Source of the DNA: Polyangiales bacterium
Lineage (GTDB): Bacteria > Myxococcota_A > Polyangia > Polyangiales > JADJQN01
DNA length: 64,000 nt
Assembly: GCA_964202905.1 (NCBI GenBank)
Contig: CAXNJO010000006.1
Location: forward strand, 320,001-384,000
Reading direction: 5' to 3'
Shown: positions 53,175-60,827 of the stretch, piece by piece
Layout: each line of letters begins with the position of its first letter
How positions within the stretch are numbered: the first letter of the stretch is position 1
Notes under the pieces: generated by a model
What the model was told of the DNA's origin: nothing
Databases searched by the model: none
Seen by the model: the letters and a program-made list of their open reading frames with translations, nothing else
Translations under genes and position numbers: made by a program

Positions 53175-54971
53175 CTAGCAGGGGAGGCGTGTCGACGGGG
53201 ATGGGCGGGGAGCATGCCGGGAACCAGAGAGCGCAGCGTGTTCATTCACGCGCTTCCGTGCGCGACGTGGGCGCGCTCGCGTCCGCGTCATCTCGGGCTC
53301 GAAGAGCCCGAGCCCGAAGTGGCTCGCGTAGCCGAGCGCCAGCGGCCCGCGCACGGCCTCCCCGAACGTGAGGCGCAGGTGGTAGCCGACCCGCTGCGGC
53401 GGCTGTCGTTGCGGGTCCAGGCGCTCGCGTCGGTGCGTGCGGTAGCGCGGTGAGGGTGTGGGGAGGCCCGCCGCGTCGACCCACGTCGGCTGCCGCGCGT
53501 CGTCCAGCACCTCGACCTCGACCTGCACGTCGTCGACGCCCTCGAAGCCGCGGCTCGCGAGCTCGGCGCGCACCTGGCCCGCGAGGTCGTTCCGACCGCG
53601 GCGCTTGAGATGGCGAGGCGGCACGAAGGGCGTCGAGGAGACCCAGCGCGCCGACGCGGCGACGACCGGGACCGTCTTCGCCAGTTCGGCGAGCTCGGCC
53701 TGGCGCGCCTTCGCTCCCGCGTGGAGATCGCCCGCGAGTCCGACGAGCGTGACGAAGTAGGTGTGGTTCTTCGTGTAGCTCGACGTCACCGTCCTCAGCG
53801 CGTGGAGCGCGTCGGCGTCGAAGCCGCCCTTGCAGTGGACGAGCACGTGGTCGATCCGCCGCTCCTCCCGCCCGCTGGCGTCGCGTGCGCCGCCGGCGTC
53901 GAGCGCGAGCGGCAGGAGCTCGGCGTGGCGGTGGCCCGCGTCACGCGCGTTGTGCCCGTCGCGCGGAGCCCCCGTGAAGCACCAGGAGCTCCCGTGCCCG
54001 GTGTCCGAGCGCTTCACGAGCGCGTCGTGGAGGCTCTCCAGCCGCAGCAACGCATCGGAGAACGAAGGCAGCCGGTTGCCGTGGCGCGTGTCGGAAGCCA
54101 GCGCCAGCAGCGCGAGCGTCGGCGACTCCCGCGTGCTCCGCGCGCTGCCCACCGGACTCCGCGCCGAGAGGGCCTCGGCCGGGCGCCAGTACGACAGCCA
54201 TCGACTCCCGGGCGGCTGACTCCAGCCGAAGCTCCGCAGGTCGCCCGTTTCGACCTGCAGCGCCTCCACGAGCGTCGTTGGATAGGGCGCCTCGAGGCGC
54301 GCCTCGTCCTTGGCAGAGAGCTTCGTGGGCGCCTTCTTCCCCTTCGCGGCCGCTGCGAGCCTGGCCTTCTCGCGCGAGACGTCGCGCGCGCGGCCGAGCT
54401 CGCCGTCTCTCCAGGCCGCGTAGGCGTCCGCGTCGGTGGGCGCGAGCAGCGGGATCCGCTCGTGGCCGAGGACGGGCACATCGCTGACCGCGCAGCGCAT
54501 CCGACCACGCTCGCGGGTCTCGTCGACGCGGCGCAGCTCGGCCCACGACTCCGCGCGCCCGAGGTACGCGACGCCGCCCGCGAGCTGCTCGACGAGCGCG
54601 AGGCTCGCGTCGTCGAGCGCGACGTCCCACACGATCCCGAGCTCGCTCGTGCGCCCCACATCCGCGAACGCGTCGAGGATCTTGTCGCTGCGGACCTTGC
54701 GCCCCTCGTTGGCCGGCATGTAGTGCCGCGTGTGCGCAGCGCTCGCGGGCGGGAGCCAGTACGTCGGCGGGCTGGCCGCGAGCTGCTCGAAGAGCCTGCG
54801 CGCGTCGGGCGGTGGCTCGCGCCAGGCGAGCTTCGTGAAGCCCGCCGCGAGGAGCGCGCGGAGCACGCGCCACGGGCTCGGCGGCCACTCGACGACGCCT
54901 TCGTTGACGTGCCTGCCCCACGGCGTCGCGTGGTAGCGCCCCGTGAGGAAGTTCGCTTCGAGGCGCAGCAT
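53175..54971 (-). CDS. csb2: Type I-G Cas5/Cas6 fusion Csb2
   Basis: GRYHATPWG..EWPPSPWR..RAL, YLGRAES, W.SSTPFV, Cas6 G-loop GPLALGYASHFGLGLF. About 38 non-conserved-looking residues follow it. TGATG overlap with csb1. Confidence 0.9.
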   Translation of the reverse strand: MLRLEANFLTGRYHATPWGRHVNEGVVEWPPSPWRVLRALLAAGFTKLAWREPPPDARRLFEQLAASPPTYWLPPASAAHTRHYMPANEGRKVRSDKILDAFADVGRTSELGIVWDVALDDASLALVEQLAGGVAYLGRAESWAELRRVDETRERGRMRCAVSDVPVLGHERIPLLAPTDADAYAAWRDGELGRARDVSREKARLAAAAKGKKAPTKLSAKDEARLEAPYPTTLVEALQVETGDLRSFGWSQPPGSRWLSYWRPAEALSARSPVGSARSTRESPTLALLALASDTRHGNRLPSFSDALLRLESLHDALVKRSDTGHGSSWCFTGAPRDGHNARDAGHRHAELLPLALDAGGARDASGREERRIDHVLVHCKGGFDADALHALRTVTSSYTKNHTYFVTLVGLAGDLHAGAKARQAELAELAKTVPVVAASARWVSSTPFVPPRHLKRRGRNDLAGQVRAELASRGFEGVDDVQVEVEVLDDARQPTWVDAAGLPTPSPRYRTHRRERLDPQRQPPQRVGYHLRLTFGEAVRGPLALGYASHFGLGLFEPEMTRTRARPRRARKRVNEHAALSGSRHAPRPSPSTRLPC

Positions 54972-58104: not shown

Positions 58105-60827
58105 GCGTGCTCCTTCGCGTCGCCGGCGAGCAGCGGGTCGTCGCCCACGCGCATCGAGGCGCGCACGTCCGCCGCGCGCAGCAGGGCTTCCAGATAGGTG
58201 AGGACGAAGGGGCCGTGCTGCGCGCGCAGATCCGCGACGCGCTCCGCCCACGACCGCCCGTAGCGCGCGCCGAGCCCGAGCCGCGCGAGCGCGAGGTCGA
58301 GGCGCGTGTCCGGGAGCACGCAGGACGCCTCGCCCGTCGCCACGCGCACCGCCGGCATCACATCGCCCTCCCGCACGCCGTGGACGCGCTGCTCCTCCGG
58401 GCGCAGCGACTGGTCCTTGAGCGTCGAGCCCAGCGTGCACCGCACCTTGCCGTGGTGGGTGAGCACGCACCACGCGACGAGATCGAGCTCGTCCGGTGCG
58501 AGCGCGCACAGCTCGGCCGCGAGCGGGTGATCCGGCGGGAGCGGCTCGATCGGCGGGCCCTCGTCGTGCGTCGCGGCGAGCGCGGCGAGGTCGACCACCA
58601 GCGCGGGGTGATCGGGCCGCGCCCGCGCGACCGTGCCGTAGAGCGCGAGCAGGCTCGCGAGCTCGTGCCGAAACCCCGGTCGCTCCGGGTAGGCCGGGCG
58701 GCGCCACGCCGAAGGCGGCGCCTTCGCCAGATCTCCGCGCTCGGGGCGCTCGCCCGCGTCGCTGCCGATGGCCCGCTGGAACACGGGGTGCGCCTTGCCC
58801 ACGTCGTGCCAGCGACCCGCGAGCGCGAGCAGCGCCGCCACCCGCGCGTCGAGGCCGAGCTCGGTCGCGATGCGGGCGACCTCGTCACCCACGGCGCGGC
58901 CATGCGTGGCGATGGTCTGGTAGCCGAGCTCGGACTGCGCGTCGCTCCCCTCGCTCGCCGCGGCGCGGTCGAACGCGGCGACGGCCGCCGCGACGCGCTC
59001 CGGGGCGTCCACGGGCTCGACCGGCGCCTTGCTCTTCGCGTCGAAGCCGAGCCGCGTCGTGTAGCCGCCCTCGGCCGCCTCCACGAGCACCACGTCGCCG
59101 GGCCGGATGCGGCGCGCGGTCGGGCGCGTGCCCGCCTGCCACTGCCCGTCGAGGTAGTCGAGCGTCCAGAAGCGCGCGAGGCCCTCGAGCCACTCCCGCG
59201 CCTGCCCCACGGGCACCCGGCACAGCTCGTCGCGCGCGGCGAGGGGCTGCTCGGAGAGCTCGAGCGCGCGGCTCCGTGGCCGACGCGCGGCCGACGCGGC
59301 CTCCGGGGCGTTCGGGTCGTCGTCGGTGTCGTCGATGGGGCCTGCGACGGAGACGGATCGCCACAGCACCGTCACGTCGCGCTCCTCGCCGGAGCGGATG
59401 AAGCGGCTCGGGTCGACGTCGCCGCCCGAGAGGTCCTTGCTCGTGTCGAAGAGCTCCTCGAGATCGGTCTGGCGGAGGATGTGGAACGGCTCGTAGCGGT
59501 AGAGCGCGGCGCGCTGCGCGTCGTCGAGGGCGCCCTCGAGCGCCTCGATCGCGCGCGGGGCGCCGTCCTCGCCGAGGAGCGTCACCGTGCGGTCCGACGC
59601 CTCGAGGTCCGCGACCTCGTACGGCCCCGCGAGCTTCTCGAGGGGCTTGCCCGCTGCCGCACCGACGACGAAGAGCGCGCCCGACTCCCCGGCGTAGCGC
59701 GCGCAACGCCCGAAACGCTGGACGAGGCTCGGCCACGGCGCGAGGTCGGTGACGAGCGTGGCGGCCGACACGTCCACGCCCGCCTCCACCACCTGGGTCG
59801 CGACGACGATCCGGCCGTGCTCGGGCAGCGCTGCGGTCGCGCACGCGGCGCGCGAGAGGAAGTCCCAGCGGGCGCGCTCGTGGCCGCGGAACCGCGAGTG
59901 CACGAGGCGCACCTCGGGGGCGTCTGCCCGCCGCGCGCGGGCCTTGTTCTTCCCGCTCCCCGTCGTGACGGTGAAGCGCTCTTCGAGCGCGGCCGCGATC
60001 GCGACGGCGCGATCGACGGTGTTCGCGACGACGAGCGTCAGCGAGCGGCCGGCGTGACGTTCGGCGGCGAGGCCCGCGACCTCCTCGGGCGTGGTGACGT
60101 CCTCGCGCCGGGTGAGCTGCTTGCGGACGTCGAAGAGCGCACCCGTCCGGGCCTCCGCGGGGATCGTCAGCATCGAGTCGGCGAGCGCGGGGACACGCCC
60201 GCGCGCGTCGAAGGTGGCGAGCCAGCCTGGCTGGAGCGTCGCGCTCATCCACCACGAGAACGCCCGCCGCAGCGAAGGATGCCCCGCCCGCAGGGCGGCG
60301 AGCTGCGAGGTCGTGGCGAGGCCCACATCCATCAGCTGGACCTCGTCGAGGATCCAGAGCGTGTCGTGGTGCACGAGGCCGAAGTCCACGGGCCAGCGCG
60401 CGCGTCCGCTGGCGAACCCGCGCATCAGCGCGCGGGAGAGTTACATGTCCTGCGTCCCCACGAGCACCGTGGGCCGCTCCGGGTGGAGGTGGAACTCACC
60501 GACGTCCACGCCGCCCATGGCGAGGTGCACGCCGACCTGCGCGTCGAGACCGGCCTGCGCGATCCACGCCTCGATGACCCGGACCGTCTGCTCGGCGAGC
60601 ACGCGCATCGGCAGCACGAAGAGCAGCCGCGTGGGCCAGCGCCGATCCCCGCGCTTCACGCGGCGGAACAACCACGGCAGGACGACGCCGGCCGTCTTGC
60701 CGAAGCCGGTGGGGATCCGCAGGAGGCGGTCCTCGCAGGTCTCGAACGCGCCGAGCGCGCGCTGCCACGGATGGGGCGGCACGCCCGTCACCGCCTCGAA
60801 GAAGCCCCCAAAGTCGTCGTTCGTCAT
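58101..60827 (-). pseudogene. cas3: Type I-G Cas3 (helicase with C-terminal HD nuclease) interrupted by an in-frame TAA at codon 129 (60441-60443)
   Basis: Walker A PTGFGKT, LPMR, GTQDM*LSRALMRG, DEVQ, MSAT, ATQVVEAGVD, QRFGR. HD motifs HDVGK, RHELAS, HHG, RAAD. The two ORF-track pieces are in the same frame. Confidence 0.88.

Follow-up and report, generated by a model that had tools for sequence, protein, structure and literature searches.

A type I-G CRISPR-Cas operon with a premature stop codon in cas3, probably recently inactivated, in a Polyangiales genome

Introduction

An effector operon of type I-G, one of the CRISPR-Cas systems (named after clusters of short palindromic repeats at regular spacing), occupies positions 53175-60827 of a 64,000-nt stretch of the Polyangiales bacterium assembly GCA_964202905.1 (the window: positions 320,001 to 384,000 of contig CAXNJO010000006.1, here C6). 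Its three genes for the surveillance complex Cascade (CRISPR-associated complex for antiviral defence) are intact, and its cas3 carries a TAA stop at codon 129. The locus therefore raises the question of whether a defence system has been lost, whether a working system is hidden behind a sequence error, or whether the effector is kept for another purpose. We consider it probable that the locus is a canonical type I-G interference operon that was recently inactivated and is now decaying. The genome (G000) comprises 19 contigs and 5.68 Mb, at 94.5% completeness. It was compared with a genome of the same genus (G001), with related loci (L-numbers) and with sequencing runs X1 to X4 (4 of 22 listed; minimum likeness for a match, 88). 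Unprefixed coordinates are those of the window.

An interrupted cas3 beside intact Cascade genes

The four genes lie on the minus strand in the order cas3 (60827-58101), csx17 (58104-55924), csb1 (55927-54971) and csb2 (54971-53175). As a preliminary description of this DNA had reported, csx17, csb1 and csb2 are intact and translationally coupled: their frames are free of stops, with start/stop overlaps ATGA, GTGA and TGATG, and no frameshift was found over the 7.6 kb of the cas operon. Csx17 (cas8g; 726 aa) matched PADLOC Cas8g (1.6e-195) and chain M of PDB 8b2x (E 1.3e-129), Csb1 (cas7g; 318 aa) matched Cas7g (5.7e-43) and Pfam PF09617, and Csb2, a Cas5-Cas6 fusion of 598 aa, matched Cas56g (8.5e-116). 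With cas8g/csx17, cas7g/csb1 and the fused csb2 in one operon, and no cas11, the gene content is that of type I-G.

The cas3 frame opens with ATG at 60827 and is closed by TAA at 60443-60441 (C6:380441-380443), within the motif GTQDM(stop)LSRAL. The 5' part (60441-60827, minus strand) encodes 128 aa that include Walker A (K44) and, from the first RecA domain, four strands (residues 34-37, 67-72, 99-103 and 120-125 of the structural model), and matched PADLOC Cas3g (1.3e-38) and positions 10-102 of the 167 of Pfam DEAD. An in-frame ATG at 60425 (Met135), 15 nt after the stop, begins a 774-aa frame ending at 58101 (minus strand), which contains Walker B (D161, in the DEVQ motif), the second RecA domain and the C-terminal HD domain (D675) and lacks Walker A (PADLOC Cas3g 1.9e-163; Pfam Cas3_HD). 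Both the stop and this frame agree with the preliminary description. Read through with X at 129, Cas3 is a 908-aa protein with an N-terminal superfamily 2 helicase and a C-terminal HD domain, as in type I-G, and its model is of high quality (predicted local distance difference test 88; predicted template modelling score 0.91).

Apart from the stop, all catalytic residues of Cas3 are intact, and alignment shows the catalytic His of Csb2 to be present. K44, D161, D675 and Csb2 H551 (His551) align with K39, D164, D625 and H503 of Thioalkalivibrio sulfidiphilus, the comparison running through L064, another strain of that species. The continuous cas3 frame expected of a functional type I-G system is absent here. 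The nearest Cas3 relatives are found in metagenome-assembled genomes of Myxococcales, which suggests a myxobacterium-like host; csx17 is present in 13 of the 61 genomes searched (the present one counted), and csx17 and csb1 were each found in none of three family members. Among the differences listed between run X4 and the window in csb2, 11/13 fall at third codon positions, which is consistent with recent purifying selection on the operon.

Evidence for the stop codon

We are fairly confident that the TAA is real. Homologues have Leu (85/86) or Ile (1/86) at this position. Contig 7 of run X1 bridges the codon: it covers 60384-60599 and differs from the window there by a single letter and a single gap. 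On the plus strand the codon is TTA, and the substitutions listed for X1 on that strand comprise one A>G and two C>T; X1 therefore reads TAA or at most CAA, which leaves no room for a Leu or Ile codon. Gln (CAA) occurs at this motif position in none of the 86 homologues. A scan of metagenomes with the motif pattern yielded a single locus, which has ATC at the codon and belongs to a relative of 70% identity, not to a conspecific.

The preliminary description had pointed out that TAA is one substitution from the Leu codon TTA. This is correct, but TTA is doubtful as the origin, being found at this position in 0/86 relatives and among 0/297 Leu codons of the operon. TTG occurs in 17/86 motif matches, including the Myxococcales loci L022/L034, L025 and L031. 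Because TTG is common and TTA unseen, an origin in two steps from TTG is no less natural than a single step from TTA; TTG or ATC (the latter seen in L032 and L111) is a possible ancestral codon.

Several observations weigh against a recent inactivation. The three Cascade genes show no decay, and Cas3 shows no other disabling change: over 129 conserved columns it deviates at five besides X129, each time conservatively. The TAA is two changes away from TTG and three from CTG or CTC. The assembly is error-prone, an rpoC-like gene (G000:C10:24631-27706) lying in about 12 frames. X1 is possibly the source sample and hence not independent, and the position of its other letter is not displayed; it is therefore stronger evidence against a polishing artefact than against a systematic base-calling error. 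Among runs X2 to X4 no listed piece crosses codon 129, the X2 contig ending at 60447. Finally, because the assembly is error-prone and 94.5% complete, a gap could conceal an array or cas1.

These points bear on a rival explanation, in which the TAA arose as an error of consensus or base calling. The operon would then be a working type I-G interference module that has no adaptation genes beside it and takes its guides from a spacer on contig C2 (below) or from an array lost in a gap. The intact catalytic residues would fit such a module, as would the genome with the closest Csx17 (G004; 70% complete), in which no cas1 was found and the array lies on another contig; C6 also ends in insertion sequence (IS) repeats. 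The assembly does contain indels of the long-read type: 15/315 orthologues change frame, including the rpoC-like gene (counted at protein level over 58 stretches of G001; 12/314 in an earlier count), and the HerA-like gene next to cas3 has a one-base frameshift. The state of the rpoC-like gene is a sign of patchy indel errors, and pseudogene calls in this assembly need care. A nucleotide-level count (43/253 genes frameshifted) was discarded as alignment noise in favour of the protein-level counts.

However, the errors seen are indels, and internal clean stops number 0 in the 315 orthologue comparisons (140k aa), a count of zero because the sole clean stop found precedes the likely start of its gene. 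The 26 stops listed with the 12/314 count lie in N-terminal extensions, at gene ends or in frameshifted stretches. To restore a sense Leu or Ile codon, one to three substitutions would be needed, among them a transversion; no change of that type is listed for X1, nor does the cas operon contain a frameshift. We regard a working module behind a false stop as unlikely.

The fate of the interrupted Cas3

In type I-A systems, helicase and HD domain are encoded on separate genes, a naturally split Cas3. The present interruption is of a different kind, being cut inside the first RecA domain. Of the 93 loci examined, 91 gave a cas3 match, and none of these is broken at codon 129. Other broken copies break at scattered sites (L098 at 87, L111 near 101 and L018 near 645; also L083 and L103). 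In the model, four strands of the first RecA domain precede the stop, and the sheet formed by the 774-aa frame would therefore be incomplete. Position 135 is an ordinary internal Met or Asn in homologous Cas3 proteins (ALMRG or ALNRG), and no Shine-Dalgarno sequence was found in the 25 nt before 60425, unlike the starts of csx17 (AAGGAG) and of cas3 and csb1 (GGAG). A literature search returned nothing useful on naturally broken type I-G cas3.

The preliminary description had listed as one option a natural nickase-like Cas3 made by re-initiation. In the version considered here, translation starting at Met135 would yield a Cas3 that is dead as a helicase but active in its HD domain; by itself or paired with the 128-aa fragment, this protein would nick targets. 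The in-frame ATG 15 nt past the stop and the intact HD residues are compatible with this, and in the passages available of PMC10482374, the helicase-dead point mutants K39A and D164A of type I-G Cas3 still gave immunity when well expressed. The absence of this split among the 91 loci, the lost strands and the lack of a start signal make the proposal very improbable. The same passages report that an HD mutant of type I-G Cas3 aggregated. In the accessible part of PMC9638904, type I-G Cascade without Cas3 produced a faint shift of double-stranded DNA, and a near-complete shift with Cas3. Since these binding data show a need for Cas3 and the mutants of PMC10482374 are point mutants that fold, both a nickase and a Cascade acting by itself are weakened as readings.

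Probable loss of the adaptation genes

If the operon has been inactivated, what became of the genes that normally accompany it? Csb2 extends 42 residues beyond its GLGLF-type terminal glycine-rich motif, against 3-19 residues in 51 homologues, and the Cas56g profile stops at residue 560 of 598. This read-through tail (53175-53294, minus strand) runs into the upstream region of a Uma2-family gene (52602-53165, minus strand; Pfam PF05685, 3.7e-19), which stands where cas4-cas1, cas2 and the array usually follow. The GC content at third codon positions is 0.67 in the tail vs 0.94 in the body of csb2. A 702-nt contig of run X2 matches only 53294-53612 (positions 9-327 of its record), and a piece of X4 matches 53296-53536; both end at the natural end of csb2. 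These ends show that related strains differ after csb2, their sequence there not being displayed. A junction after csb2 is probable; the preliminary description had suggested a deletion junction from the long tail.

The Pfam families PF01867, PF09827 and PF01930 for cas1, cas2 and cas4 had no match in the whole 94.5%-complete assembly, and tblastn with the type I-G Cas4-1 and Cas2 proteins of relatives also gave no match there. The cas4-cas1 and cas2 adaptation module required by a functional type I-G system was thus not found in the assembly. cas1 and cas2 are also not nearby in 10/50 related loci with at least 3 kb of sequence past csb2 (L022 was left out as a duplicate of L034). In the same-genus genome, L190 and L191 (G001:C37 and C345) hold two short weak Cas1-family matches and no match to type I-G Cas4-1.

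A one-spacer unit on contig C2

k-mer array finders detected no array of three or more repeats on any of the 19 contigs. A relaxed search for pairs returned 12, none of them I-G-like; since its matches must have 19 exact letters, it cannot pick up the unit described here, which a strict repeat regular expression missed too. A position weight matrix (PWM) built from 36 type I-G repeats of related loci located a repeat at C2:782520-782485 (minus strand), scoring 23.5 bits (reversed-genome control, at most 12.8; leave-one-out scores, 14.6-44.5). The unit (G000:C2:782520-782413; L187:10027-9920, minus) consists of this repeat, a 36-nt spacer and a degenerate repeat (22/36 matches). It lies outside the window, 10 kb from the contig end, beside deleted and intact pairs of genes that we take, from their sequence and the Pfam match of a C6 copy, to be of DUF433 type, and beside a Uma2 gene. 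The repeat is predicted to fold into an 8-bp hairpin (-14.7 kcal/mol, z -3.2) followed by 4 nt and an 8-nt handle, and the leader motif stands at 51 nt vs 46-48 in most arrays. The 3' half of the degenerate repeat matches the upstream region of the intact DUF433-type pair 1.6 kb on, and leads into the deleted copy. The earlier statement that cas1, cas2, cas4 and arrays are missing from the window holds, with the refinement that this single unit exists outside it.

The repeat is single-copy in the genome at up to 8 mismatches, and a search of 300 other genomes of the order, none of them a close strain, did not find it with as many as 3 mismatches allowed. The spacer matched its own genome at best in 28/36 positions without a protospacer-adjacent motif (PAM), against 25-27 for shuffled spacers. 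Among 128 seed matches the longest PAM-adjacent seed run was 13, close to chance by our estimate; before cas3 the best run was 6, without a PAM, and no target was found near the cas genes or neighbouring promoters. Viral contigs contained neither an exact 24-mer of the spacer nor the repeat core, and matches to phage and plasmid sequences were at chance level (best E 0.03). One match of a PAM and 17 nt of spacer diverges afterwards and was taken as chance. Of the options offered by the preliminary description, recent silencing fits best; escape from self-targeting as its cause is unsupported, because the sole spacer matches the genome no better than shuffles.

The unit also bears on a second proposal of that description, that Cascade without active Cas3 is kept as an RNA-guided repressor. 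The C2 CRISPR RNA (crRNA) would act in trans in the manner of CreA and other crRNA-like RNAs (crlRNAs), perhaps on the adjacent DUF433-type toxin-antitoxin genes. The repeat has type I-G geometry and the PWM score given above, its distal repeat is degenerate as in the mini-arrays of the passages seen of bioRxiv 10.1101/2023.03.03.530964, and His551 of Csb2 is intact. The spacer, however, lacks the PAM-adjacent match in a cas or toxin promoter that is characteristic of such regulators, the binding of Cascade without Cas3 was faint (PMC9638904, in part), and no copy of the repeat was found in the 300 other genomes. We find such a repressor quite improbable. A combined version, in which the stop was selected and Cascade with a re-initiated or two-piece helicase-dead Cas3 and the C2 crRNA represses or nicks a target absent from the assembly, is also improbable. 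If true, such a natural non-degrading type I-G effector would be the first of its kind. An array cut down to one spacer is the simpler reading of the C2 unit than a regulator.

Solitary type I-G repeats occur just upstream of cas3 in 3/69 related loci (L018, L067 and L079). The one at L018:1041-1076 (G004:C6) lies about 130 nt upstream of cas3 and is unlike the repeat of the G004 array. It is possible that these are self-regulatory RNAs of type I-G; a literature search on self-regulatory type I-G repeats found nothing. No repeat-like site was found upstream of the present cas3 (best PWM score -5.5). These solitary repeats may be worth more than the main finding.

A mobile island between core genes

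In G001, a thiC-like gene is followed directly by a gene that we name fusA from its sequence (G001:C42). In G000, the thiC-like gene (50735-52543, plus strand; 87% identical to G001:C42) forms the left border and fusA lies on contig C15. As the G001 site runs straight to fusA and is thus empty, the operon sits in an island of at least 23 kb after the thiC-like gene. The island contains Uma2 genes, a HerA-like ATPase, DUF433 and IS3, IS91 and IS4-type elements. An IS3-IS91 composite at the end of C15 gives a match to C6:388510-391161, and because the two contigs share it, the island is possibly closed or hides a gap. Both C6 and C15 have ends dense with IS3, IS91-like and IS4-type elements (L112:9350-17406 and L182:4525-10434), and a 2.65-kb composite is common to them.

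Upstream of cas3, a HerA/DUF87-like ATPase gene (61005-62376, minus strand), assigned by profile matches and compared with a paralogue at the end of C18, has one extra base near 61611 that may be an assembly indel; G001 has several paralogues. An inverted repeat with 8-bp arms at 60860-60881, about 35 nt upstream of the cas3 start, was seen by eye and is a possible operator. No sigma-70 promoter consensus was found. GC-rich tandem repeats of 43 nt at 63337-63610, between an ORF of no recognized family (62377-63180) and a second Uma2 gene, were considered as an array and rejected for want of spacers. AT-rich direct and inverted repeats of about 43 nt also occur in islands at L187:9333-9551 and on G000:C18 near 43815.

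Discussion

We propose that a type I-G interference operon (cas3, cas8g, cas7g and csb2) arrived on the IS-rich island between thiC and fusA. The TAA would be a recent loss-of-function mutation that leaves no usable Cas3, its product being a 128-aa fragment. Production of Cascade may continue, and the single C2 crRNA could be processed by Csb2. Such a Cascade would bind DNA weakly and not cut it, so the system would confer no immunity. cas1, cas2, cas4 and most of the array would have been lost by deletion or recombination, with nothing selecting for repair.

Understood as a recently inactivated operon, the locus is a snapshot of CRISPR loss on a mobile island. It also serves as a caution: when a metagenome assembly is error-prone, repurposing cannot be read from a broken cas3 next to intact Cascade genes. 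Should the native allele turn out to yield a stable truncated Cas3 that still supports DNA binding or nicking, nature would have its own version of the engineered helicase-dead type I-G editor, one from which the portion of Cas3 required by Cascade could be mapped.

Three known systems invite comparison. The helicase-dead Cas3 mutants engineered in PMC10482374, as far as its available passages describe them, are likewise without ATPase activity and keep the HD site; they are full-length, whereas the 774-aa frame is missing 134 residues from the first RecA domain and shows no clear start signal. The standalone mini-arrays and crlRNAs described in passages of bioRxiv 10.1101/2023.03.03.530964 are built, like the C2 unit, from a single repeat and spacer followed by a degenerate distal repeat; they comprise both regulators and remnants of lost loci. 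The C2 unit differs in lying on another contig than the cas genes and in having no PAM-adjacent promoter target; those passages do not mention type I-G or I-U, and the supplements might list cases. Finally, the present locus departs from the type I-G (formerly I-U) system of T. sulfidiphilus, as covered by the sections consulted of PMC9638904 and PMC10482374 and by PDB 8b2x, in its cas3 cut at codon 129 and its csb2 tail, and in that no cas4-cas1, cas2 or multi-spacer array was found. The two systems share the gene set and order cas3-cas8g-cas7g-csb2, the C-terminal HD domain of Cas3 and, here on C2, a 36-nt repeat with a hairpin, 4 nt and an 8-nt handle.

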